A DNA stretch of 64,000 bases from an uncultured delta proteobacterium (GCA_963827685.1 CAWHBU010000005.1:1-64000); one strand, 5' to 3'. Numbered from the stretch's first letter, positions 9,880 to 64,000 are shown. The notes: generated by a model from the letters alone, not told the origin. A program made the numbers and translations.

Positions 9880-10443
9880 TCAGACAATGATGGACTTCAG
9901 GTATTTCCTGAAATAGTCGACTCCGGAGATGACGGCAATCCCCAAAGCAATCCATAGAAAAACCATCCCGATCGGACGAAAATTGAGGAAAAAATAACTT
10001 CCATTGAGGATAAGAAAAAAGATAGAAGCTGCTTCGAAAACCGTCTTATACTTTCCCGAAGCGCTCGCAGAAATAATGATATCCTGAGAAACGGCAATTC
10101 CCCTCAGCCCTGTAATGGCAATTTCCCTTCCGACTATGACAATGACCATCCAGACAGGAACCTCTCTTGCAGGGATAAGTGCAATGAGAGCAGTGACGAT
10201 CAACAGCTTGTCTGCAAGGGGATCAAGAAATTTCCCCAAGGTGGTCACCATGCCACGCCGTCTTGCGAGATACCCGTCGAACGTATCGGTAACGGCGGCT
10301 CCGAGAAAGAGCAGTGCGGTGAGGAGTTGATATCCCCGCCCCATGTAAAAAAGGAGAACGAGGATAAGGGGAATCGCTAGAATCCTGAGGATCGTCACTC
10401 CATTCGGTAGGCTCAGTATCTGTTGGCGATTGAGTTTTTCCAT
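9880..10443 (-). CDS. pgsA: CDP-diacylglycerol--glycerol-3-phosphate 3-phosphatidyltransferase
   Basis: TDTFDGYLAR...GKFLDPLADK; classic pgsA-tRNAGly-tRNACys synteny. Confidence 0.95.
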   Translation of the reverse strand: MEKLNRQQILSLPNGVTILRILAIPLILVLLFYMGRGYQLLTALLFLGAAVTDTFDGYLARRRGMVTTLGKFLDPLADKLLIVTALIALIPAREVPVWMVIVIVGREIAITGLRGIAVSQDIIISASASGKYKTVFEAASIFFLILNGSYFFLNFRPIGMVFLWIALGIAVISGVDYFRKYLKSIIV

Positions 10444-53372: not shown

Positions 53373-54290
53373 TCAACGTCCTTCAGGCAATTTTTCTTCA
53401 GTAGCCTTAAGAAGGGCCTCGGCATCAGCCTCTGTTGGAGCTCCAAAAACAATGAGAATAAATTCATTCCGCTGTCGGGCAAAAGTCCACTTCCGGTCTT
53501 CCGTTCTTGCGCGATCCATCCCTCTCACATCGGGAAGGTAAACCTTCATGAAGCTCCGGTAGGCATCTGCAGCCTCTTTCGAGTCGGGATATCGAATGAG
53601 AAGAAGTTGGGTCTTTTGTTTACCTTGAAGGTATTGAGCGAGCACGGCTTCCGTCTTCCGGCTCAGGTTTAAAATATTCTGGTGGGCTATGAAGAACCGT
53701 TGGTTCAGGAGAACATGACTCTTAAGATAGCGAAGGCTCTTATCGACCAGCCCAAGGTCTTTCCCCGGAATAAAGCCGACCAATTTCGGCTCCAGACCCA
53801 CAGCCGGGATTGAATTTGCCGCAGCCCTGCCCATCTTGAGGATTCCTGATTCAACCTCCGCTCCCTCCCCTTCTGCATAGAGGCTGACAAAATATTTACC
53901 TTTCCAGAACCGAAGCAACCCTCCCCCAAACTCCGACCCCTGACCGATTCCTACGGCTTCATCCTGATGTTCAAAAGAAAAAACCCCATAAGCATCCTCT
54001 GAAGAAGCCATTTCATAGAGTTCGAGGAGTATGGGAGGTTGATTCGATTTCTCAAACCGGCGAACCGTGAGATTCTGAAAACCATACGCCAGATAAAGCT
54101 CCGCGGCCCCATCGATGTAACTGAATAGGGTTTTAGAATTGTATTTCATCTCCTTCCCGTCCCACTTCCAGTCCCCGGCTTCTGAAGGCAGGAAAATCTC
54201 TCGACTCATTTTCCCCTTCTCTTCTCCCTTGGCCATTTCGGCTACCGTGAATATTAAAACTATGATAACAAAAAAAGTCCAAATCCGCAT
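53373..54290 (-). CDS. Exported protein (DUF6599-like)
   Basis: LFSYIDGAAELYLAYGF...YEM....AYGVFS. Confidence 0.75.
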   Translation of the reverse strand: MRIWTFFVIIVLIFTVAEMAKGEEKGKMSREIFLPSEAGDWKWDGKEMKYNSKTLFSYIDGAAELYLAYGFQNLTVRRFEKSNQPPILLELYEMASSEDAYGVFSFEHQDEAVGIGQGSEFGGGLLRFWKGKYFVSLYAEGEGAEVESGILKMGRAAANSIPAVGLEPKLVGFIPGKDLGLVDKSLRYLKSHVLLNQRFFIAHQNILNLSRKTEAVLAQYLQGKQKTQLLLIRYPDSKEAADAYRSFMKVYLPDVRGMDRARTEDRKWTFARQRNEFILIVFGAPTEADAEALLKATEEKLPEGR

Positions 54291-54299
54291 GTCAGATTA

Positions 54300-54371
54300 T
54301 TATTCCCCTCCACCCTGAAGCACCTTCACTGCCTTATTACAAATATGCATGTGAGCAACATTCGCCGGCAT
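54300..54371 (-). repeat. Copy 2 of the direct repeat / 23-aa ORF
   Basis: MPANVAHMHICNKAVKVLQGGGE*. Confidence 0.7.
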
Positions 54372-54414
54372 TATTGGTTCTTTCTAAATTTTAGAATACG
54401 AAAGCCTCCAGAAT

Positions 54415-54549
54415 TCACACCCGATAGTCGCAATCTTTTCTCATCAGGTCTTCTGTCGCAGATTTCACCTCCTTAGAAACAAGCGAAGGTCCTTTTTGAA
54501 AAGCAACAATCTTTGCCTTTTCAATACATCTCTCAAACTCGCTACTCAT
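54415..54549 (-). pseudogene. Internally deleted HEPN-family toxin remnant
   Basis: ATGA overlap with the MNT gene; 44 aa: an N-terminus ending SKEVKSATEDL joined to an R--xDY-like C-terminal motif. Confidence 0.6.
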
Positions 54550-55103
54550 CGTTTCTTCTCGTGCAGGACTGTCCCTTGATCGACCTCTTTTAAGATTAGC
54601 TCCTTCTTATTTCTCATCGAAAGATACTCTTCCACGCTTACGACGATCGATTTAATCTCTCTTTTTACCTTCTCCGTCTCCTTTCTTATTTCTCTTAATA
54701 TTTTTTCTTTATCTTTGCCTATAACAAAAAGATCAATATCGCTCTCCACCGTATCTTCGCCAGTCGCACAACTACCGTAGAGAACTATTTTGTTAGATAC
54801 TTCTCTTATTCTTAGAAGAAGTGGAATTAAATCCAGAATATTTTCAAATTTCTTAAACTCCCGCACGATGGGTTGATCCGGTACGATTCGATACAGAAAA
54901 AGCTGTCCCTTCTTCTCCCTTGTGACCACTCCCATACGAAGGAGGAATTTAAGGGTTTGATTTGTGGCTCCAACGCTTACCTCAATCGATCTGGCTATTT
55001 CTCTCTCGTAATGAGGTATATGAGGCACTCTGCAGAGGTACGAGAAGATCTTTAGGGGAACGCCTTTTAAAAGCTTCTCTTTGAAGTCCGTCTGGCTTTT
55101 CAT
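54546..55103 (-). CDS. HTH + minimal nucleotidyltransferase (MNT antitoxin)
   Basis: YEREIAR HTH; LYGSCATGED..ESDIDL. Confidence 0.9.
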   Translation of the reverse strand: MKSQTDFKEKLLKGVPLKIFSYLCRVPHIPHYEREIARSIEVSVGATNQTLKFLLRMGVVTREKKGQLFLYRIVPDQPIVREFKKFENILDLIPLLLRIREVSNKIVLYGSCATGEDTVESDIDLFVIGKDKEKILREIRKETEKVKREIKSIVVSVEEYLSMRNKKELILKEVDQGTVLHEKKR

Positions 55104-55140
55104 TTAAATATGGCAACTGTTCATTTAAATGGGATTAGTG

Positions 55141-55154
55141 TTCATTATAATGAA
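55141..55154. promoter_or_regulatory. Palindromic operator candidate upstream of the MNT gene
   Basis: TTCATTATAATGAA, plus related TTCATTTAAAT copies nearby. Confidence 0.55.
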
Positions 55155-55436
55155 TTATTACCACCCGGTCAAGCTCCGCTTTTCTCTATGCTTTTCTCCA
55201 ATGTGAACCCACCCCCAATTAGAGTTTGACTGAATAATGGAAGCACCCAATAAAATTGTGCTTCAAAAATTCAGTCAACGACTACTCAACGACTCTGAGA
55301 CCCAATAAATCAATTACTCAATGACCTAATAACTTGGTTCGAGGTTTAATCTGTTCGCTTCGCTCTATGCCCTTAGCGCCATGCTTCAGGGCAGGGCCAA
55401 CTTTTTTATGGATGCCACCCCTTGGATATGGTTTAT

Positions 55437-56153
55437 TTACCCTTTCACTGAATGCTTATGAGTTTTGACCTCCCGGGCCCCCATGGCCATGACGTTATAG
55501 ATTGACGGTAGGGTTGAAATGTAGCGGTCACATGCGTCTATTTTTTGTCCCAATAGTCTTTCCCACTCGATAATCTCGTTTGCCATCAAGCATATAACAT
55601 CAGAATAGTCGACGGTCTGAAAAAGCTTTCTCCACTGATTGTTGTCAACTGGTAGCGCCACTTCGGGAAAAACCGAGAATAGAAGCTTACTAGCCCCTAC
55701 CAACCCCAAAGATGTTTCACTCATGCATAGGGGTAGCAGTTGTTTGAACATGTACCACAATTTTCCCGCAACCTGTTTTCTTTCGACCTCCGAAACTTCA
55801 ACAAGAACTCGCTCTCGAGTGGCAATTGGCCGGCTGATTAAAAACTTTTTCAGGTCAAGGACAGATTCCCCGATGGCCTTCCATGATTCGCTTAATATTT
55901 CTCGATCATTGTCAAAACCTTTTCTATTGAACACCCTCACCCCTTTAAAAGGCCCTGTACGCGTCATTTTGAAATTAGACATAAGTTTTGCAGCATTCTT
56001 AAGAAATATGCCCTTATCTATCCGGTCTTGAGTGGCGCCGATAATTTCTTGTACGGTCAAGCTGTAACTCCGGCCGAATTTTTCCAGGCATTTTTCTATG
56101 TAAGCCTTAGGATGGGGGTTGCCTGAATTATCAAATAGGACTTTCATATTCAT
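55437..56153 (-). CDS. Hypothetical protein
   Basis: 238-aa ORF; contains ASKLLF..FPE..LPVD. Confidence 0.75.
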   Translation of the reverse strand: MNMKVLFDNSGNPHPKAYIEKCLEKFGRSYSLTVQEIIGATQDRIDKGIFLKNAAKLMSNFKMTRTGPFKGVRVFNRKGFDNDREILSESWKAIGESVLDLKKFLISRPIATRERVLVEVSEVERKQVAGKLWYMFKQLLPLCMSETSLGLVGASKLLFSVFPEVALPVDNNQWRKLFQTVDYSDVICLMANEIIEWERLLGQKIDACDRYISTLPSIYNVMAMGAREVKTHKHSVKG

Positions 56154-56195
56154 GAATTCCCTTTCAGGTTTGCACCTGATCGAAACGCGAAGAAA

Positions 56196-56993
56196 TCACT
56201 TGATCCCCAGAATCCACCCCTCGACCTCTGCCACCGTGCGCTCAGCAAGCGTCAGAGACGGCTTGAAAAACTCTGCAAGGCTGCCGTCAAGGTCAGCGTG
56301 GCGCATCCAGGCAGCGACCGAGTAGGCGTCGTGCTGATCGCCACTGCGCCCTTCTCGCTCGAAGTTGTGTCTCCACAGGGAGGGATAGACCTCCGCTATC
56401 ACCGACCGCCCGGCCAGGATATCCCAGCCGTCAAATGGCCAAAAATAGATCTGATCGTGTAACTGCTGTCGAAGATAGCGTAACCACGGCAGTCCAGCAT
56501 GGGTGGACTTTGCCACTGCCCCTTGCACATCGAAATGAAAAACTGACTTGGCCGATCTGGCTCGTACTTCAGTCAACCGCCTCCAGCGAGGGTTGCCAGT
56601 ACGGTTTGCCCCATTGCCGCATATGCCCTCACGCACGAATTCGACATAGGTATTGTCCCCGTCAGTCGGCCAGTGCCGCTGAAAGTCATCTAGAAAGGCC
56701 GGCCAATCAGGTGGCAAGCCATGAGCCTGAAAATACTGTATTGGAAATGAAAAACCATGGTCGAGGCCGACCAGCGTTACCTTTCCTTCGGAAAGCCTTT
56801 CTACCAGCCATTCAGCGATGCCGCGCCGCGTCCAATATTTGCGAGGACTTGCCGGCGGTTCAACCTCCATGGGCAAGGTTTCTCGATCCGCCATATAGAC
56901 CTGCAGACCCTTCAGACTTGATGTCGGAGTCTTTGCACCGGAATAGTCGATTCCAATGTACTGTTTAAAGGCCGGATTACGTACGCTATTCAT
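56196..56993 (-). CDS. DUF429-like predicted RNase H-fold nuclease
   Basis: IGIDYSGA, GLD.GFSFP, EVYP, HDA and EGWI motifs. Confidence 0.7.
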   Translation of the reverse strand: MNSVRNPAFKQYIGIDYSGAKTPTSSLKGLQVYMADRETLPMEVEPPASPRKYWTRRGIAEWLVERLSEGKVTLVGLDHGFSFPIQYFQAHGLPPDWPAFLDDFQRHWPTDGDNTYVEFVREGICGNGANRTGNPRWRRLTEVRARSAKSVFHFDVQGAVAKSTHAGLPWLRYLRQQLHDQIYFWPFDGWDILAGRSVIAEVYPSLWRHNFEREGRSGDQHDAYSVAAWMRHADLDGSLAEFFKPSLTLAERTVAEVEGWILGIK

Positions 56994-57371
56994 GTCTGCG
57001 GACTCCTCCTCGAAAAAAACATCTCAGCCCCACTCTCTTCTTGCATATATCGAATTATCGTTGCCCGATATCATATGGTTGACTGAATTTTTCAGTCAGG
57101 CAGGAATTAATTCGTGAGGTGGAATCAGAAAATGCCGCCCACATGACTTGACTGAAAAATTCAGCCAGGCGTTACGAACTTCCTTTGAGCTTTCAGACTT
57201 GAGCTGATCGCGATGCGTGCGTTTGCGAACGGCCAACTTTTTTATGGATGACACCAGGGATCAGTATTTAATAACCTAACTTGTTGAATGCTGAGACCGG
57301 ACCCTGAGCCGCTAATGGAAGTAATCCCAGGCTTTCCGTGGTAGCTCCGATTTCAGTGAAACTTTCATCTA

Positions 57372-57920
57372 TTAAAACCTGTTTCTGTGTAACCAACTGA
57401 ATTCGGATCGCTTCGGAGGAAGAGAGGGTTTCTCCCCTGGTTCCCCGATCTTCAGAATGGCAGCTAACTCATAATCTTCTGGAATACCAAGGATTTTTTT
57501 AACCTCCTTTTCCTGCTCCCCCCAAAAGACCACGATCCCACTTCCCAAACCATCGGCAACCGCAACCAAAGACATATTTTCGATGCAAAGCCAGGCACTT
57601 GCCGCCGCCCCTTTCTGATGGCAGACTGCAACAGCACTCGCATTCTCGAATGATTTCCTCTGACCGACCGCCCTCTCTTGAACTTTATCCTGTCCTTCTC
57701 CAGCACGAGGAGGCATCGTTAAGCTAAGCTGATACTTTCGTTCCGCAATTTGATCGATAGTCTTTTGATCATCAATAATAATGAACTCCCAGGGCTGAGA
57801 ATTTCCGGCTGAGGGTGCCTGGGTGCCCGCCAGAATAATTTTCTTGAGCTGTTCTTCCGAAGCCTTCTTCTTAAAAATGCGAATTGTTCTCCTCTTTGCG
57901 ATTACTTCATGCATTTCCAT
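57372..57920 (-). CDS. Nitroreductase family protein
   Basis: KRRTIR.F, APSAGNSQPWEF, ENMSL.A...GLGS. Confidence 0.92.
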   Translation of the reverse strand: MEMHEVIAKRRTIRIFKKKASEEQLKKIILAGTQAPSAGNSQPWEFIIIDDQKTIDQIAERKYQLSLTMPPRAGEGQDKVQERAVGQRKSFENASAVAVCHQKGAAASAWLCIENMSLVAVADGLGSGIVVFWGEQEKEVKKILGIPEDYELAAILKIGEPGEKPSLPPKRSEFSWLHRNRF

Positions 57921-58553
57921 ATGTCGTCTCCTTTCGTAAATGTTATGTATCTCTAAGCTCTATCCCGTAAGAGGCGCCAACGAAGTGAAGAATGTTGAAC
58001 GGAGTCCTTTCCTTCCCCATATATATTAAAAGTCTACATAATCAGAATGGTGGCGTCAATATCACCATTGGCTTCAGCAAGGAAGAGATCGGACACGGCT
58101 TGGAATGGATGGAAGATCTGTTCGGAGAAAGACAGGGGTTGTCACGTGAATCTCTGACTTTTTTGTAATCATCAGGTTGGCGGCATATCGTCATCTCGCT
58201 CACCCCGAGTTCTTGGCCAAGTCGACTTGAAATAAGCCTTTGCTCCGGGTTCGGCCAGGAGAAAGCGGAATCTGGGGGTAATACCATGTCTCCTGCTTCT
58301 CAACCATCGATTCCTCGATGCCCCAACAAGTGGTTTATTGTTGACGCTGTGCTCCATGCTCTTTTTAGTTTTAAATTCCGCAATCAGCAATCCGAAATCC
58401 CTGCCTCCGCCGGAGCGGCTTCGCGCAGGCAGGCGCATTCTGCAATCGAATGGGCCAACTTTTTTATGGATGACACCGAAGTTTTTGAATAATTAGTTTG
58501 TATCTATCTGTTATTAAAAAAATATGAGAACCGTCCCCAAATAATTTATCAGT

Positions 58554-59020
58554 TTATTTTTTTGAAGTCCTTTGACTTAGGTTTTTCACAAGTTCCTTGC
58601 CTAGCGCGAGGCACTTTTTCTTCGCTTCGTTGCTAATGGGACGTTCACTTCCTACCGTCTCCCCCACCTGCTGGAAGAAGCGCTGAGCAAGGGATTCGAA
58701 AGGCTGCCTCACCTTCCCGCCACCACCACAGGAAAAGAAAAGGACAGCCGGTTTTCCTTTGACAGGCTTGCCCGATTGATCCCACAGGTAAATATCATCG
58801 AAAAAGGTCTTAACCGTGCCCGCGACGTATGAGAAATAGTCAGGGGTCCCGATCGCAACCCCATCGGCGGACAAAAATTCTTCCAGCGTGACCCGCCGCT
58901 CGTTTGTGTTAATGAGGTTAACTTCAGTCCCCGCTTCCCGACCCCCTCCGCAAGTGCTTCTGCAAGCATCTTTGTATTCCCATACTGCTGGCTGTGATAA
59001 ACAACAATAATTTTCCCCAT
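58554..59020 (-). pseudogene. Flavodoxin/WrbA-like protein with a single frameshift near 58940-58950
   Basis: VVYHSQQYGNTKMLAEALAEG in one frame; ADGVAIGTPDYF...KTFFD in the next. Confidence 0.8.
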
Positions 59021-59083
59021 AGTCTTCCTCCTTAACAATAGACAATCCAAACTATTTTATGGATGACAGGTAGACGTCTTAAA

Positions 59084-59252
59084 TTATTCATTGATTGGCA
59101 GGGTATGGATTCGGAGACGAGTCTGCTCAAACACTACGACACTCCCCTGCTCCAGTGCCTCCTGGATCATCGGGAGATTTGACAACAAGAGAGCAATTTG
59201 TTTTTCTGGTCGGCGATCTGATCCCCTTCTGAAAAGAATCAAGGAACTTCAT
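59084..59252 (-). pseudogene. Internally deleted DUF5615/PIN-like toxin remnant
   Basis: ATGA overlap with DUF433; MKFL joined out of frame to [22 protein letters not shown]...[18 protein letters not shown]. Confidence 0.75.
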
Positions 59253-59479
59253 GATCCAGTCACCAGTGGGAGTTCCCGCTCTCGCACCGCCTCGGCAGCA
59301 TACCGGAGGCCTTCTTGGAGATCTTCAGCCTCGAGATCTGGATATGCTCTGAGAATCTGTTCCTTTGTCATACCATCTACTATCATCCCCACCACTGTGG
59401 CCACTGGAATGCGTAATCCCCGGATACAGGGTACGCCTCCCATCTGATTGGGATTGATTGTTATTCGTTTGAATTTCAT
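59249..59479 (-). CDS. DUF433 antitoxin
   Basis: RITINPNQMGGVPCIRGLRIPV...YPDLE.ED. Confidence 0.93.
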   Translation of the reverse strand: MKFKRITINPNQMGGVPCIRGLRIPVATVVGMIVDGMTKEQILRAYPDLEAEDLQEGLRYAAEAVRERELPLVTGS

Positions 59480-59915
59480 CTAATGAACCTCCCTGAATTT
59501 CAACTAAGTCTAAAAAAGTCGCCTTACTATAAAACTCTTTTAAATCATTATACATGAAATCTTTTATCTTCAAAAGAGAATAAATACAAACCGATGCCAT
59601 GCTCTTTGCCCTTTGCGCTATGCGCGCCGCTGTTATTAGCTTTAGATTCCGCATTCCGCAATCGCCATTCCGCATTTGAATGGGCCAACTTTTTTATGGA
59701 TGACATCATAATTCACAATTCAAGACCTGATACCAAAACTGACACCAAAACTTTGCGCTTATTACGCACCTCGCGTTGCGCATTTTGCGTTATCTTATCT
59801 CTTTGACAATTCTTCGTCAAAGGGAGTTATTCAAAATGGGCGGCCCAAAATATTGAAGGTGGTGTTGATATGGATGCTAAATTTTAAAAATGAGACGCGC
59901 CCCATTTTCAATCAC

Positions 59916-60182
59916 CTATTCATAATGAGTCCACATCCTGATGACCTTGACGGTCTTTATTTCTTGCAAGACTTGGTACACGAGACGGTGTTGAATAGTG
60001 ATGCGACGGGAATAGGCTCCAGAAAGGTCTCCGATCAGCTTTTCAAAGGGTGGAGGGGTTTGAAACGGATTTTCAGAGAGAATGTCAAGTAGTTTTTCGG
60101 CTTTCTGCCTCAGGCCTGCCGCCGCAATTTTCTTTGCGTCCTTCTGAGCTTGCCTGGTGTAGACAATCCTCCACTTTACCAT
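59916..60182 (-). CDS. Txe/YoeB family toxin
   Basis: PPPFEKL.GDLSGAYSRRITIQHRLVY...MWTHYE. Confidence 0.93.
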   Translation of the reverse strand: MVKWRIVYTRQAQKDAKKIAAAGLRQKAEKLLDILSENPFQTPPPFEKLIGDLSGAYSRRITIQHRLVYQVLQEIKTVKVIRMWTHYE

Positions 60183-60418
60183 CCAGGTTTCCCGCTGCAC
60201 TTTCTAACAGCCGTCTTGAGCCCCTTCCGAATGGATTCTCTCATGCCAGGAATAGATAAGAGATAGAGGGTTTCTTGGATGGATCGCCAGTCGCCCTCGG
60301 AAATCAAGATAGCGTTTGACCTCTTTCCCGTAATCTGAATCGGTTCGTGGGATTCTGAAGCCTCGTCGAGCAATTTATAAAGATTTGCCCGAGCTTCTGT
60401 CGCCTTAATCGTTGTCAT
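60176..60418 (-). CDS. Phd/YefM family antitoxin
   Basis: ATEARANLYKLLDE...PIQITGKR...IQETLYLLSIPGM. Confidence 0.93.
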   Translation of the reverse strand: MTTIKATEARANLYKLLDEASESHEPIQITGKRSNAILISEGDWRSIQETLYLLSIPGMRESIRKGLKTAVRKCSGKPGW

Positions 60419-60437
60419 ACGAATCACCTCAGTTTAT

Positions 60438-60466
60438 AACGTACATTAAAACGTACGCAATGTCAA
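60438..60466 (-). promoter_or_regulatory. TA promoter with overlapping GTAC operator repeats
   Basis: TTGACA-N17-TACGTT; two AACGTAC repeats. Confidence 0.6.
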
Positions 60467-60633
60467 GAGATATTCGCTTGGCTCTGAAACCAGACACCAA
60501 GTTCGGAGTGACCTAATAACCCAATAATTAGTTTAATTCCGCACTCCGCAATCCAAAATCCCTGCCTACCGGCAGGCAGGCGCATTTGGATACACCAACT
60601 TTTTTGTGGAGGCCACCATAATTCACATTTCAA

Positions 60634-62254
60634 CGGCCTGTTGCTCAAAAGCCCAATTCAAAAATATCTGACAGTTTAAGTTTCGATGAATGATAGCCGG
60701 GGGTAAATAGAACCAAATAGCACCATTTGGCCAATTTTAAAGCTCATCAGCTCCTTAAAATCTGAAAAAGACCTTATCTCCCTTGTCACAGCCCCTTTGA
60801 TCTGCTCCATCATTACCGATGGACTTCTCTTTAGGTAAGATCCATACCTCAGCAAAACCTCAATGTTCTGGACAGCAGAGATCAGGTATTCCTGTATCTG
60901 CACCCGCCAAAGCCCTCTCCATCGTGCCCGGTCATATCCATACCGCGTCCCTCTGGCATAGGAACGCTCCATCAAGTGTTGCCTCATTTTGATATCCCGC
61001 TTCGCTTTGGCCGATCGACTCGCCTCTCGCATCCTGTCTAGATCTTCCTGCCTCAGATGTCGCTTAATTGTCCGACCCGACTTGTTCTTGGTACACTGCT
61101 CTCTTAAGTCACATACCGCACAAATCTTCTTGGGCGCAGCGTAATCTCTACTTTGCCGACTCATATGTAATGACCTAGGCTTCAACCGATGCCCAGCTGG
61201 ACAACGATAGGTGTCACTCTCCCGATCATACTCAAACCGCTCTTCCCCAAAGATATTCTGCTTTTCTGTACGCTTCAATGAAATTTCCCTCAAATCCGGC
61301 ATGTGGGCCTCTACTCCTCTATCATGACAGGCCAAAAAGTTCTCGATCGTCCCGTATTTGCTGTCGGCCACCACCGTATCCGCCTTGACCCCTGTATTTA
61401 AATGGTGGCTCTCTATCAGAGGAATCATCTCATGCGCTTCATTGACATCTCCTGTTGTCGTCTCGATCGCCGTGATCACTTCACTCCGCTCATCCACGGC
61501 CCGATGTACCTGATAGGAGAGTTTGGGCTTGCCACGATTCACTATCGATGCATCCGGATCGGTCGTTGAAATGTATCGGCTGTTCTCTTTAACGTATCTC
61601 CTGGAGGAATCCGTGCTCTCGCTCTTTTCCTCTAATCGTGCTTCCAGCTTCTTGTAGCCCTCCTGGAGTTGAACCTTCAACGATCGCGTGTCGATCACGG
61701 AGTTGTTCGATGCATCCGCATCCACCAAGCTCGAATCCACAAAGATCTTTCTGCCGTCCACTAACCCCGCCTCCACACATTGCCACACCATTCGCTCAAA
61801 AAATCCCCTAAACGCCTCTACTCCCCACCGCGCCCGGGCTTTACTCAATACACTGTGATCCGGCACCTCGCTGTCTATGTCGTACCCTAAAAACCATAGC
61901 CAGTCTAAACGCATGGGGATCGTTTCCATTAACTCTCGTTCCGATCGAACATTGTAAAGAACTAACAGCAACATCATCTTCAGGATCACAGGAGGGGGAA
62001 TGGACACATTCCCATTGCCTCCATAGGTATCTCTGACTTCGGCATAGATGAAGTTAAAGTCAATCTGCTCCTGGATCTTTCTCAGAAGGTGTGTCCGGGG
62101 AACTCTTTGGTCCAGGTTCATATGATGATAGAAGATCTTCGGCTGAATTCCTGTCTGTTGACCCATCATGGCAAAATCTCCATTCCTGATTTGTCTTGCC
62201 ATGCTTATAGCTCGAATGTATAATCGTTGCAAGCATCATTTGGGCAACAGCCCG
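60634..62254 (-). mobile_element. IS1182-family insertion sequence
   Basis: 16-bp imperfect IRs CGGCCTGTTGCTCAAA / TTTGGGCAACAGCCCG; 4-bp TSD TCAA at 60630-60633 and 62255-62258. Confidence 0.88.
60676..62169 (-). CDS. IS1182-family DDE transposase
   Basis: SERELME, PDHSVLS, VDSS.V.A.AS, ADSKYG, YRCPAG Zn motif. Confidence 0.9.
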   Translation of the reverse strand: MMGQQTGIQPKIFYHHMNLDQRVPRTHLLRKIQEQIDFNFIYAEVRDTYGGNGNVSIPPPVILKMMLLLVLYNVRSERELMETIPMRLDWLWFLGYDIDSEVPDHSVLSKARARWGVEAFRGFFERMVWQCVEAGLVDGRKIFVDSSLVDADASNNSVIDTRSLKVQLQEGYKKLEARLEEKSESTDSSRRYVKENSRYISTTDPDASIVNRGKPKLSYQVHRAVDERSEVITAIETTTGDVNEAHEMIPLIESHHLNTGVKADTVVADSKYGTIENFLACHDRGVEAHMPDLREISLKRTEKQNIFGEERFEYDRESDTYRCPAGHRLKPRSLHMSRQSRDYAAPKKICAVCDLREQCTKNKSGRTIKRHLRQEDLDRMREASRSAKAKRDIKMRQHLMERSYARGTRYGYDRARWRGLWRVQIQEYLISAVQNIEVLLRYGSYLKRSPSVMMEQIKGAVTREIRSFSDFKELMSFKIGQMVLFGSIYPRLSFIET

Positions 62255-62475
62255 TCAAGACCTGACACCGGAGCCTATTACTTTCTTGAGCCACTATGCC
62301 ACCAGACGCTGCCAACTTTTTTATGGATGACCTAAATCCCTTTTAAGATTCTTATAATTTTATGGACGCCCCCCTTTGATTATCAAGCAAAGTGTATAAT
62401 GTAGCTTTGACCCCAAAGTCTTTTTCAAAGTCTCTTTCCGTGTGAAGAATCTGGTCCGCTCTCATGGTTTTCAGG

Positions 62476-64000
62476 CTACTTGGCTCTTTCGGGGGGTTGG
62501 CCCAAAAGCGCTTTTAACTTCTCCATAGCCTTTCCGAAGTCTTCCCATCTTCCCTGTCGAATAGCCTGCTCAGCTTCTTTGAGATCCTCTCTTGCCCGGT
62601 TCAGCTGTTCGCTCTGAACGGGGGCAGAGACTTTCCCGGCCTCAGGTTGAGCGGTGCCGAAAACGGCCTGAAGGGCTTGATCAAGAGTTGGCTCCATAAC
62701 CACTTTGTTCCCGGATACAATAATAATCCGTTTGAGCTGCGGGATGTTTGTGCCCTCCGCCGTCAGGTACACAGGCTCGACGTAAAGGAAGGAGCTATCG
62801 ATGGGGATAATAATCAAGTTGCCACGGATGACCCGGGAGCCTTTCTGGTCCCAAAGGGACAACTGCCCGGAGATCAGCGTGTTCTGATCGATCATCGCCT
62901 CGATCTGCATGGGGCCCAGAATCAGCCGCTCCTTTGGGAGTTGATAAAGGAGCATTTTCCCATATTCAGGAAAATCGCAATTGGCAGCCATCCAGGCGAT
63001 CATGTTGTCTCTGTTCTGAGGCGTAAAGGGACTCATCAGAAGATACATAAGCTCTTTCTGGCCGGGAAGCCGCATCAGGATATAATAGGGGATCATCGGG
63101 ATGGTATTGCCGGCATATTTCTCCTGTGCAAAACTCCAGAGATCTTCTCGGTTGTAGAAGACCTGAGGATCCGTCATGTGATAGGTCCTGTACATGTCGG
63201 CTTGAATCGTGAAAAAGTCCTCAGGGTATCTCAGATGCCTTTTTAAATCCTGCGATAACTCCCCCAATTCCCTGAAGACCCCCGGAAACGCCTTGCGGTA
63301 AACGCCGAGGACCGGGTCATCGACGTCCATTACATAAAATCGAACAGAGCCTTCATAGATATCCACAATCACCTTCACGGAGTTTCGGATATAATTCAAG
63401 CCAATCCCCAAGGATCTTGATTGGGGTTTTGAGTAGGGGAAATGGTCGGAAGTTGTGTAGGCATCCTGAATCCAGTAAAGCTTCCCTTCGCTCAGGACGA
63501 GGTAAGGATCTTTGTCCAGTAGTAAAAAAGGGGCGATTCTCCTAACTCGGTCCTGGACACTTCTCCAAATCTGGATACGACTCTCAGGGCCGAGATAAGA
63601 GGTGAGCAGTATATTGACGTCTGAGAAATTCCATGCAAAAAGAACTCTTTTCCAGTAGCTGTCCAGAGGAATGCCTCCCTTCCCCTGATAGCTGGTATAG
63701 ATATTTTCACTCCCCTTCGGATAGTCAAATTCTTTCATCTTGGTCCCGACGATCCGATAACCCGGGGTCTTTTCGCCGAAGTAGATGGCAGGCTGCTCAA
63801 CATTCAGGCCGTACTTGGAGACGGGCGGGATATTTTCGATAATATACTGCGGGAATCCTCCTTCGGCAATCTTCGAGACGAAGTTCATGACGAGACCATA
63901 GCCGTGGGTATATTGAAGACGCTCATTGACCCACGTCCTGGCCTGTTCGGGAAGCTCGGGCGCCAACTCCCGAGCTGGAGACTCCACCTGATGATAGCCG
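62476..64000 (-). CDS. UPF0182 family membrane protein (5' part outside the window)
   Basis: WVN.RL.YTHGYG, WIQDAYTTS, NYIRNSVK and LYVEPVY motifs. Confidence 0.92.
   Translation of the reverse strand, partial: GYHQVESPARELAPELPEQARTWVNERLQYTHGYGLVMNFVSKIAEGGFPQYIIENIPPVSKYGLNVEQPAIYFGEKTPGYRIVGTKMKEFDYPKGSENIYTSYQGKGGIPLDSYWKRVLFAWNFSDVNILLTSYLGPESRIQIWRSVQDRVRRIAPFLLLDKDPYLVLSEGKLYWIQDAYTTSDHFPYSKPQSRSLGIGLNYIRNSVKVIVDIYEGSVRFYVMDVDDPVLGVYRKAFPGVFRELGELSQDLKRHLRYPEDFFTIQADMYRTYHMTDPQVFYNREDLWSFAQEKYAGNTIPMIPYYILMRLPGQKELMYLLMSPFTPQNRDNMIAWMAANCDFPEYGKMLLYQLPKERLILGPMQIEAMIDQNTLISGQLSLWDQKGSRVIRGNLIIIPIDSSFLYVEPVYLTAEGTNIPQLKRIIIVSGNKVVMEPTLDQALQAVFGTAQPEAGKVSAPVQSEQLNRAREDLKEAEQAIRQGRWEDFGKAMEKLKALLGQPPERAK

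Follow-up and report, generated by a model that had tools for sequence, protein, structure and literature searches.

In a stretch of 64,000 nucleotides from the genome of an uncultured delta proteobacterium of sediment (GCA_963827685.1, CAWHBU010000005.1:1-64000; hereafter the window), small gene modules are separated by copies of a short motif, GGTGTCATCCATAAAAAAGTTGGCC, at which left and right flanks assort independently and at which modules are gained, lost and reordered. We consider it somewhat probable that GGTGTCATCCATAAAAAAGTTGGCC is the core of a double-stranded recombination site that resembles an attI simple site, and that it belongs to an integron-like cassette system served by an enzyme acting in trans. 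Integrons are the textbook means of stocking and reshuffling single genes and are defined by the integrase IntI together with the folded attC site; as a consequence of that definition, search tools find only arrays of the IntI/attC type. What we describe here is an integron-like outcome without IntI or attC, i.e. an exchange of co-oriented modules at one defined site, seen in multiple arrays of a genome and across at least 13 genera.

The window holds six strong copies and one weak copy of the motif, all on the minus strand between 55395 and 62334, and none elsewhere, in line with a preliminary description of this DNA that had reported seven copies in the same orientation within 7 kb. A 23-mer version with at most 3 mismatches matches the minus strand at 55397, 57233, 58455, 59685, 60595 and 62312 (zero matches in 100 shuffles). 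The 16-mer core with at most 2 mismatches gives 7 matches against 0.09 expected, which adds the weak copy at 59048 (TCCATAAAATAGTTTG), and over the whole window it has no match outside 55397-62327. The copies at 55397 and 59048 start about 15-17 bases past the stop codons at 55437 and 59084, as had been noted before (less than 20 bp). The seven copies are:

55395..55419, minus strand: site copy 1 (GGTGGCATCCATAAAAAAGTTGGCC), 42.9 bits; the window's last copy, with the MNT-like gene next
57231..57255, minus strand: site copy 2, consensus, 44.4 bits
58453..58477, minus strand: site copy 3, consensus, 45.4 bits; 5' edge of the nitroreductase module
59046..59070, minus strand: site copy 4, weak (CTGTCATCCATAAAATAGTTTGGAT), 22.9 bits
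59683..59707, minus strand: site copy 5, 44.1 bits
60593..60617, minus strand: site copy 6 (GGTGGCCTCCACAAAAAAGTTGGTG), 27.0 bits
62310..62334, minus strand: site copy 7, 38.2 bits; preceded by the 'type A' left flank

Counting column by column over 88 clustered copies, the conserved stretch amounts to about 25-26 bases, from about -9 to +16 around the core (GGTGTCATC-CATAAAAAAGTTGG-CC), where the values at positions 0-13 are inflated because these positions served for collecting the copies; on either side conservation is at background level, a drop as sharp as had been claimed. Several more familiar readings of the motif were rejected: a leader peptide (MSSIKKLA), because conservation stops at GGCC; sigma-70, sigma-54 and extracytoplasmic function (ECF) sigma factor promoters, as a -35 element is not conserved; and an opposite-strand terminator, as the hairpins do not adjoin the T run. 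The sole Rfam match in 54000-64000 at E<=1 is a chance-level small nucleolar RNA (E 0.97), and the motif string is absent in both orientations from the literature that was searched.

A position weight matrix made from 38 copies was run at a threshold of at least 24 bits over the whole genome (G000; 5.23 Mb, 94.5% complete, in which the window is G000:C5:1-64000), with the reversed genome as control. It yielded 43 sites against 0 in the control, and since 38 of the 43 fall in five clusters, together about 65 kb, the even genome-wide scatter that the preliminary description had named as a refuting outcome is not seen. Each cluster keeps to one strand:

C1:261-266 kb, single strand: cluster of 5 copies
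C4:503-535 kb, single strand: cluster of 11 copies
C4:726-729 kb, single strand: cluster of 2 copies
C5:55-70 kb, single strand: cluster of 12 copies, the window array included
C7:180-190.5 kb, single strand: cluster of 8 copies

The C5 array extends past the window, on the far side of a UPF0182 gene, to C5:70155, a continuation that the preliminary description does not mention. The other arrays are rich in toxin-antitoxin and defence functions (PIN, MazE, ParE/Phd, SocA, HEPN/MNT-type and a restriction-modification pair) and further carry amtB-glnK, RNase D, RluA-type pseudouridine synthases, MltA, a radical SAM enzyme and an 8-kb ABC transporter block. Units without an open reading frame (ORF) also occur, as stretches of 150-185 bases from one copy to the next that contain no gene. 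A gene for a CD-NTase (CBASS-type cyclase) at C4:501211-502194 (L010:4211-5194) is found just ahead of the C4 array, and in relatives BREX, STAND NTPase and AbiE genes flank arrays; by this neighbourhood, the arrays sit in defence islands.

That the motif marks the junction between modules follows from a comparison of the flanks of 66 copies, from this genome and from loci of the relatives G004, G009 and G010, in which sharing was defined as at least 25 bases. The left flank only is shared by 32 pairs and the right flank only by 34, whereas just 2 pairs share both, one of which is a tandem duplication; the pairs are not independent events, as they fall into 7 left and 7 right families. In the printed alignments identity ends at the motif edges. 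Downstream of UPF0182, for instance, G004 and G009 have 91 bases in common up to and through the site and are then fully different, and this genome and G010 share the MNT side of copy 55397 and not the other side, so that module boundaries coincide with the site when the locus is aligned across relatives, a check that the preliminary description had proposed. Modules also occur in other places: the nitroreductase module (C5 57363-58478) has a 98% identical counterpart at C4:505370-506483 that begins at the 5' edge of the site, the YefM/YoeB pair (94% identical) lies downstream of UPF0182 in this genome and upstream of it in G010, and a single array of G011 unites modules that are found here in the C1, C4 and C7 arrays. 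The amtB-glnK module of G011 and that of this genome are 98% identical from site to site, save for an insertion sequence (IS) in the latter. Genomes that are 96-97% identical carry modules in differing arrays and orders. Between the orthologues of C5:54304 and C5:83746, G011 carries 9.8 kb of other DNA without the motif; judged by this comparison, the region of the window array is a variable island.

Natural variants were sought in Logan contigs of four sequencing runs, compared with 54500-63500; no run contains more than 42% of the words sampled from this region, and no RNA data set is among the runs listed for it. In contigs of X1 and X2, two runs that belong to different studies, 59683 is connected to 62311 through 20-21 bases compatible with both sides, so that two modules, comprising the IS and the YefM/YoeB pair, are missing precisely from copy 5 to copy 7. 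In one X2 contig 59704 is connected back to 57231, as would result from a circle, a tandem copy or a different order of modules. Further contig joints lie at copies 55414, 58474 and 62311.

The site is not an attC. When the reverse complement of the motif was sought within 140 bases of 38 copies, the best ungapped matches averaged 10.6 of 20 positions upstream and 10.4 downstream, against 10.2 (maximum 13) for 500 random genome segments, and there is no inverted motif copy in or near the arrays. A covariance model (R2), built from seven canonical attC sites of the relative G071 (CCTAAC ... GTTAGGC, bulged stem), recovers the attCs beside intI in three genomes outside its training set (about ten sites in G026, one in G020, one in G013). 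At E<=1 the model has no match in the window or in the motif arrays L009-L014, L019-L023, L151, L153 and L157; two weak matches in the motif-bearing locus L016 (E 0.26 and 0.67) do not lie at a motif copy. The outcome that a covariance model would call these sites canonical attC did not occur, and the earlier claims of missing attC hairpins and of cassette-like modules bounded by a non-attC site agree with the R2 null result and the chance-level complement as well as with the assortment of flanks and the movement of modules. True integrons do exist in the family, in which 17 of 41 genomes exceed the TIGR02249 cut-off, and the G026 contig with a motif array also carries a canonical integron, at a distance of about 93 kb. 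Such integrons, which have intI and attC of 60-100 bases (CCTAAC...GTTAGGC), were observed at L158 (G071:C271) and L150 (G026:C24:52-70 kb).

Variation within the site gives a clue regarding the point of exchange. Among left-shared pairs, no mismatch in the 20-mer occurs at positions 13-16 and 11 of 32 differ at each of T17 and T18; among right-shared pairs only 3 of 34 differ at T17 and 2 of 34 at T18. Variants of T17/T18, about five of which are independent (GTGGG twice, GTGGC, GCTGG, GGAGG), therefore travel with the right flank. At C4:507490 there is a half-site junction, where the motif halts at ...AAAAAAG and is followed by GAGGAAATCC, the ribosome-binding site of the next gene. In integron R boxes the exchange point lies just 5' of the TT in GTT, and both the half-site junction and the T17/T18 variants fit such a position, which suggests a crossover just 5' of the TT of GTT here as well. 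The resemblance to attI includes the right end GTTGGCC, which agrees with GTTRRRY at 6 of 7 positions, and CCATAAA, which agrees with the attI1 L box CCCTAAA at 6 of 7 (many variant copies have the exact CCCTAAA, 7 of 7), while the attI1 core from plasmid R100, GTCGCCCTAAAACAAAGTTAAAC, aligns with the motif GTCATCCATAAAAAAGTTGGCC at 14 of 19 positions with one gap. According to PMC12901181, the L box CCCTAAA and the R box GTTRRRY of attI1 are bound as double-stranded DNA, and IntI1 efficiently excises attI1-gene-attI1 units.

The motif is a feature of a group of relatives, recorded as uncultured deltaproteobacteria or Thermodesulfobacteriota. The 20-mer with at most 2 mismatches occurs in 25 of 61 genomes (12 of 14 other genus members, 22 of 36 other family members, 13 of 36 genera), for which the reversed-pattern control gave 0-1 matches per genome; outside this Desulfobacterota family there is at most 1 match per genome. 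A contig scan with a degenerate 17-mer was dominated by chance single matches in unrelated taxa. The exact 20-mer is present in more than 134 metagenome contigs, in many metagenomes of sediment, peat and wetland, and in 0 viral contigs. The 73 metagenome loci examined contain 158 copies, and in all 39 multi-copy loci the copies lie on one strand.

Under the proposed mechanism, the site would connect small gene modules in head-to-tail order, forming several chromosomal arrays in each genome, and would act as double-stranded DNA, without a hairpin partner, by virtue of a layout like that of an attI simple site (L-box-like CCATAAA/CCCTAAA, A-rich spacer, R-box-like GTTGGCC). A recombinase whose gene lies elsewhere in the genome, for which a tyrosine recombinase is the best guess, would carry out strand exchange within the site, probably immediately 5' of the TT; recombination of two direct copies would free the intervening DNA as a circle, which could then be inserted at any further copy, whether in that array or in a different one. 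The site with its clustering and single orientation, the lack of attC structure, the independent assortment of the flanks and the gain, loss and reordering of modules are observed; we infer the enzyme, the circle and the precise point of crossover. A further-reaching formulation, which we put forward tentatively, is that of an IntI- and attC-independent capture system that parallels the integron, in which a 25-base double-stranded site is seeded at many chromosomal loci and is served by either a repurposed housekeeping enzyme or a protein family so far not recognised as recombinases; every copy would then be a landing pad, and all arrays of the genome would draw on a single pool of modules.

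The search for the enzyme covered flanks of the arrays and several families of recombinases and transposases. The claim that the window encodes no cognate enzyme is right, and the same holds for the array flanks examined, save for an intI at 5.6 kb from the array on G011:C108, the only recombinase near any of them; that array is located 3' of intI, in convergent orientation. Array-end proteins without a Pfam match gave nothing recombinase-like in NCBIfam, and the most frequent protein family in the metagenome loci is a PIN protein (11 members). Dif and pdif sites consist of an 11-base XerC arm, a 6-8-base centre and an 11-base XerD arm; Xer was rejected, as the motif shows no TTATG... arm, no XerD arm and no conservation past +16. 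The probable dif of the genus, GTGTCTGATAA-GATATA-TTATGTTAACT, of which 4 of 5 relatives keep one conserved copy, has only GTC...ATAA in common with the motif, at a different spacing. It was observed as GTGTCTGATAAGATATATTATGTTAACT at G000:C2:737718 on the minus strand, identical in G010 and G004 and with 3 differences in G011 and G026; a first dif candidate at C2:326899 was dropped as it was not found in 14 genomes of the genus. A tyrosine recombinase of about 200 residues was rejected for its sporadic occurrence: it was not found in the motif-rich G007, G010, G012 and G013 and is present in the motif-free G027. This protein, which comprises the catalytic domain only, has 3-4 copies here (C4:172551-173156, C6:132834-133433, C2:692520-693119) and is likewise sporadic in relatives, and most of its genome-search matches span one in-frame stop, usually TGA. 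Three copies of recombinase-in-trio (RIT) elements were also seen in this genome.

A number of observations weigh against the proposal. Array flanks of this genome, G010, G011 and G026 contain housekeeping and defence genes and no recurring recombinase, and the serine recombinase family PF00239 has no member in this 94.5% complete genome. Its IntI is a C-terminal remnant of 141 residues (C3:782919-783275, L017 about 9919-10275; 191 bits against a cut-off of 265), near which no N-terminal part is found, and the same remnant occurs in G010 (C1:720662-721045), a near-complete genome of 2 contigs with 22 motif copies. Presence of motif and integrase do not go together either, given that G004, G007 and G028 have 17-25 motif copies and no full IntI while G023 and G035 have IntI and no motif, and in 0 of 25 family intI loci does the motif lie upstream of intI as attI. 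Housekeeping-type genes among the modules (UPF0182, amtB-glnK, RNase D, MltA, the 8-kb ABC block) are unlike integron cargo. The nitroreductase duplicate breaks off 9 bases past its stop codon and the shared YefM/YoeB stretch right at the stop codon, both short of the next site. The contig joints are from metagenomes and possibly from different strains, so that they represent variant arrangements rather than excision in one cell. A set of 369 copies spreads the first mismatches over the whole site, as positions 1, 2, 8 and 9 vary freely. Finally, the L and R boxes stand 2 bases closer together than in attI1 and the motif is A-rich, so that the likeness to attI is weak evidence and should be viewed as resemblance, not membership. 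The attI-like model of the preliminary description draws its support from resemblance (of the boxes and the attI1 core) and from the T17/T18 variants, and falls short regarding the intI loci and the fragmentary IntI; a consistent linkage to intI or RAYT genes, which it had suggested looking for, was not found. As separate observations, the IntI remnant is an open frame of about 135-141 residues that is stop-free in two genomes, and C-terminal-only IntI matches occur in at least 13 other family genomes.

The main alternative, which does without a dedicated recombinase, is that the motif constitutes a conserved cis-regulatory or protein-binding element before accessory operons (part of a promoter, an operator or the site of an architectural protein), in which case the shuffling is a by-product of homologous or slipped-strand recombination at 25-base copies. 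All seven window copies, and most copies in other arrays, indeed precede genes on the same strand, housekeeping genes carry the motif too, no dedicated enzyme was found, and the weak copy at 59048 (a TAAAAT usable as -10 box, 17 bases past TTAAGA) and a partial copy in the 'type A' flank have an acceptable -10 TAAAAT with a -35 at 17-18 bases; moreover, a stretch of 25 identical bases comes close to the minimum length needed for RecA-dependent exchange. We nevertheless hold this explanation to be unlikely. It is weakened because the consensus TAAAAA misses the final T of a -10 and no conserved bases occur at a -35 distance, because the start codon is anywhere from about 27 to 535 bases away, with hairpins of the repetitive extragenic palindromic (REP) kind and heptamers between, because opposite-strand genes follow the copies at C1:263533, 265440 and 265996 and C4:510298, because some pairs of copies have no gene between them, and because the half-site junction at C4:507490 is not expected of a regulatory element. 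In addition, movement between arrays requires insertion, which short-homology slippage does not provide.

Two other explanations invoke known mobile systems. The motif could be the conserved end of non-autonomous mobile elements moved by a transposase that the genome has in many copies, namely an IS1182-family DDE, an IS200 Y1 or a REP-associated tyrosine transposase (RAYT)-like enzyme, the arrays then being nested or tandem insertions, a scenario close to the RAYT/HUH model of the preliminary description. Its first seven bases, GGTGTCA, are those of the GGTGTCAGGTCTTG box that flanks IS1182-family copies in or beside arrays and resemble the GGGGTCA start of RAYT-flanking boxes; a GG(G/T)G(T/C)CAGGTCTTG box adjoins seven IS1182 copies or fragments, and five lie 13-74 bases upstream of a motif copy; and RAYT-like genes are found some 1.5 kb ahead of the G026:C24 array and at about 1 kb from a copy on G007:C102. 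We regard such an origin as quite improbable, in view of the lack of an inverted second end (all array copies are direct, with no complement within 140 bases). The box is found at only 7 of about 20 IS1182 copies and is for that reason a preferred target rather than an IS end; on these junctions the IS1182 element seems to target it. The GGGGTCAGGTCTT / GGGGTCAGGTCTTG boxes occur dispersed throughout the contigs, on either strand, and 11 of 202 matches (at most 2 mismatches) are within 300 nt upstream of a motif copy. Neither Y1 enzyme fits: the IS200 transposase, present as 21 identical copies of a 545-base IS, has ends and targets unrelated to the motif, and RAYT-like genes occur in 46 of 61 genomes without correlation with the motif, including motif-free ones, whereas the motif-bearing G004 and G009 have none at E<=1e-30, so that the RAYT/HUH model is not supported. 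The arrays could also be ordinary integron arrays or clusters of attC sites lacking integrases (CALINs) with attC too divergent to recognise, for which one may cite the 17 family genomes above the TIGR02249 cut-off, the IntI remnant, the intI at 5.6 kb from a G011 array, the toxin-antitoxin-rich cargo and the 6 of 7 fit to GTTRRRY. With complements at chance level (10.6 and 10.4 against 10.2 of 20), a model that finds the attCs of relatives and none at motif copies, a G011 array that is 3' of intI and points towards it, and no intI locus with the motif at attI, this explanation is extremely improbable.

Compared with known systems, the proposed cassette system is closest to integrons (sedentary chromosomal ones in particular), CALINs and the attI-attI or delta-attI-type cassettes of mobile integrons, with which it has co-oriented modules of 1-3 genes, a cargo of toxin-antitoxin and unknown-function genes, ORF-less units, flanks that assort independently at the site, a GTTRRRY-like right end and an L-box-like CCATAAA/CCCTAAA in common; the excision of attI1-gene-attI1 units by IntI1 that PMC12901181 reports makes double-stranded attI-type cassette boundaries workable. 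It differs in the lack of an attC hairpin, an adjoining intI, an attI platform and a Pc promoter, in the number of arrays (at least 5 per genome, where an integron has one platform), in the housekeeping-type genes and blocks of up to 11 kb between copies, and in the shorter L-R spacing. The dif modules of Acinetobacter plasmids, which have pdif sites acted upon by XerC/XerD, are likewise separate units, toxin-antitoxin pairs among them, that have a short double-stranded site at their borders, shuffle extensively between replicons, have no dedicated recombinase beside them and attract a specific IS family beside their sites (PMC13141974, PMC6449649 and PMC10132070). The pdif sites have XerC and XerD arms, alternate in orientation and are plasmid-borne, whereas the sites described here are all direct, lack a XerD arm and are chromosomal; the direct orientation in every cluster of this genome and in the 39 multi-copy metagenome loci is at odds with dif-module alternation.

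The composite staphylococcal cassette chromosome (SCC) islands employ Ccr serine recombinases and direct repeats at rlmH. As in those islands, direct core repeats mark every tandem-array junction, and SCC units without their own recombinase are excisable in trans; unlike them, the present arrays have no fixed anchor at the 3' end of a particular conserved gene, this genome has no serine recombinase, and the units are much smaller. An att site derived from a tRNA or gene end was rejected as well: no tRNA or tmRNA adjoins the arrays in 13 loci or the window array, no tRNA or other gene end matches the site, and array neighbours differ from locus to locus. With REP/RAYT systems and REPINs the motif shares that it is a short intergenic repeat starting with GG(G/T)GTCA, in a genome with a RAYT-like Y1 transposase gene (283 residues, G000:C4:98189-99037, L300) flanked by inverted GGGGTCAGGTCTT / GGGGTCAGGTCTTTTAT boxes. 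REPs, however, are palindromic or form inverted pairs on both strands, whereas the motif is asymmetric, clustered, co-oriented and module-bounding.

If the enzyme is found, this would amount to a second, simpler cassette system, based on a short double-stranded site with no need for a hairpin; cassette pools would then be under-counted in anaerobic sediment bacteria, and the compact pair of site and recombinase might serve as a tool. The arrays also offer a testable case for how attI-type double-strand recombination could predate the attC mechanism.

The genes and other elements of the window array are the following:

54546..55103, minus strand: helix-turn-helix plus nucleotidyltransferase (MNT-like) gene (Pfam), beyond the last copy; common to G010 up to the site, no further
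55437..56993, minus strand: two-gene module of unknown function (238 and 265 residues)
57372..57920, minus strand: nitroreductase gene (Pfam, PF00881), with a 535-base leader (57921-58452)
58554..59045, minus strand: flavodoxin-like FMN_red module (Pfam)
59084..59479, minus strand: DUF433 antitoxin-like gene (Pfam) and 52-residue partner remnant
59916..60427, minus strand: YefM/YoeB toxin-antitoxin module (Pfam)
60633..62255, minus strand: IS1182-family insertion sequence (328 bits against a cut-off of 270; transposase 60676-62232)
62335..62424, minus strand: 'type A' left flank, ahead of copy 7
62476..64000, minus strand: UPF0182 gene, 3' part (whole gene 62476 to about 65177)

All modules between the copies are on the minus strand, as had been described for modules of 1-2 genes. 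With respect to their content, Pfam supports the earlier assignments of nitroreductase, flavodoxin, DUF433, YefM/YoeB and the MNT-like gene; the 'DUF429-like' gene (56196-56993) has no Pfam match at E<=0.001, a HEPN partner of the MNT-like gene was not found, and of the PIN toxin there is only a remnant. That remnant (59084-59242, 52 residues) aligns only to residues 84-123 of a 126-residue DUF5615/PIN-like toxin, and because it matches just the C-terminal 40 residues the DUF433/DUF5615 pair looks inactivated. The locus had been placed downstream of the UPF0182 gene, which is too simple, as the gene itself lies between two copies, copy 7 (62312) and a further one at C5:65346. Near-perfect palindromes TTGACTGAA(N3)TTCAGTCAA at 55226-55278 and 57080-57167, in the leaders of the MNT-like and 265-residue genes, look like operators of some regulator, and related TGAGTCAAT repeats occur in ORF-less units, e.g. 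C5:65346-65550.

The flanks of the site are in part recurrent elements themselves. The 'type A' left flank, of about 90-115 bases and with 7 genome copies, contains a partial second site copy (GCGTCCATAAAAT) and a promoter-like TTGATA-18-TAAAAT, and a second left-flank family contains a GGGGYCAGGTCTTGCAAT box, a dispersed unit resembling REPs or miniature inverted-repeat transposable elements that is the preferred IS1182 target. The IS1182 family has about 16 full copies of 95-98% identity, among them 60633-62255, C7:183531-185177 and C4:525174-526840, and the element of the window, absent from the preliminary description, sits in the left flank of copy 6, within the array. The nitroreductase duplicate in C4 ends beside a GGTGTCAGG box; as some module ends miss the next site in this way, IS- and REP-linked events also reshape the arrays.

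Two other repeats, heptamers and a GC-rich hairpin, were rejected as parts of the site, being genome-wide elements that gather in arrays. The heptamers (GCGGAAT/GCGGATT and relatives) form runs of at least 3 units at 29 loci genome-wide, 7 of which are near a motif copy, and the hairpin CCTGCCTGC...GCAGGCAGG, often between heptamer runs, has about 50 genome copies, including those at 58399-58434 and 60561-60580 in the window; the nitroreductase leader contains both heptamer repeats and a REP-like hairpin. Elsewhere in the genome, inverted box pairs about 114 bases apart (C4:101107/101221, C6:355569/355683) resemble REPIN doublets.

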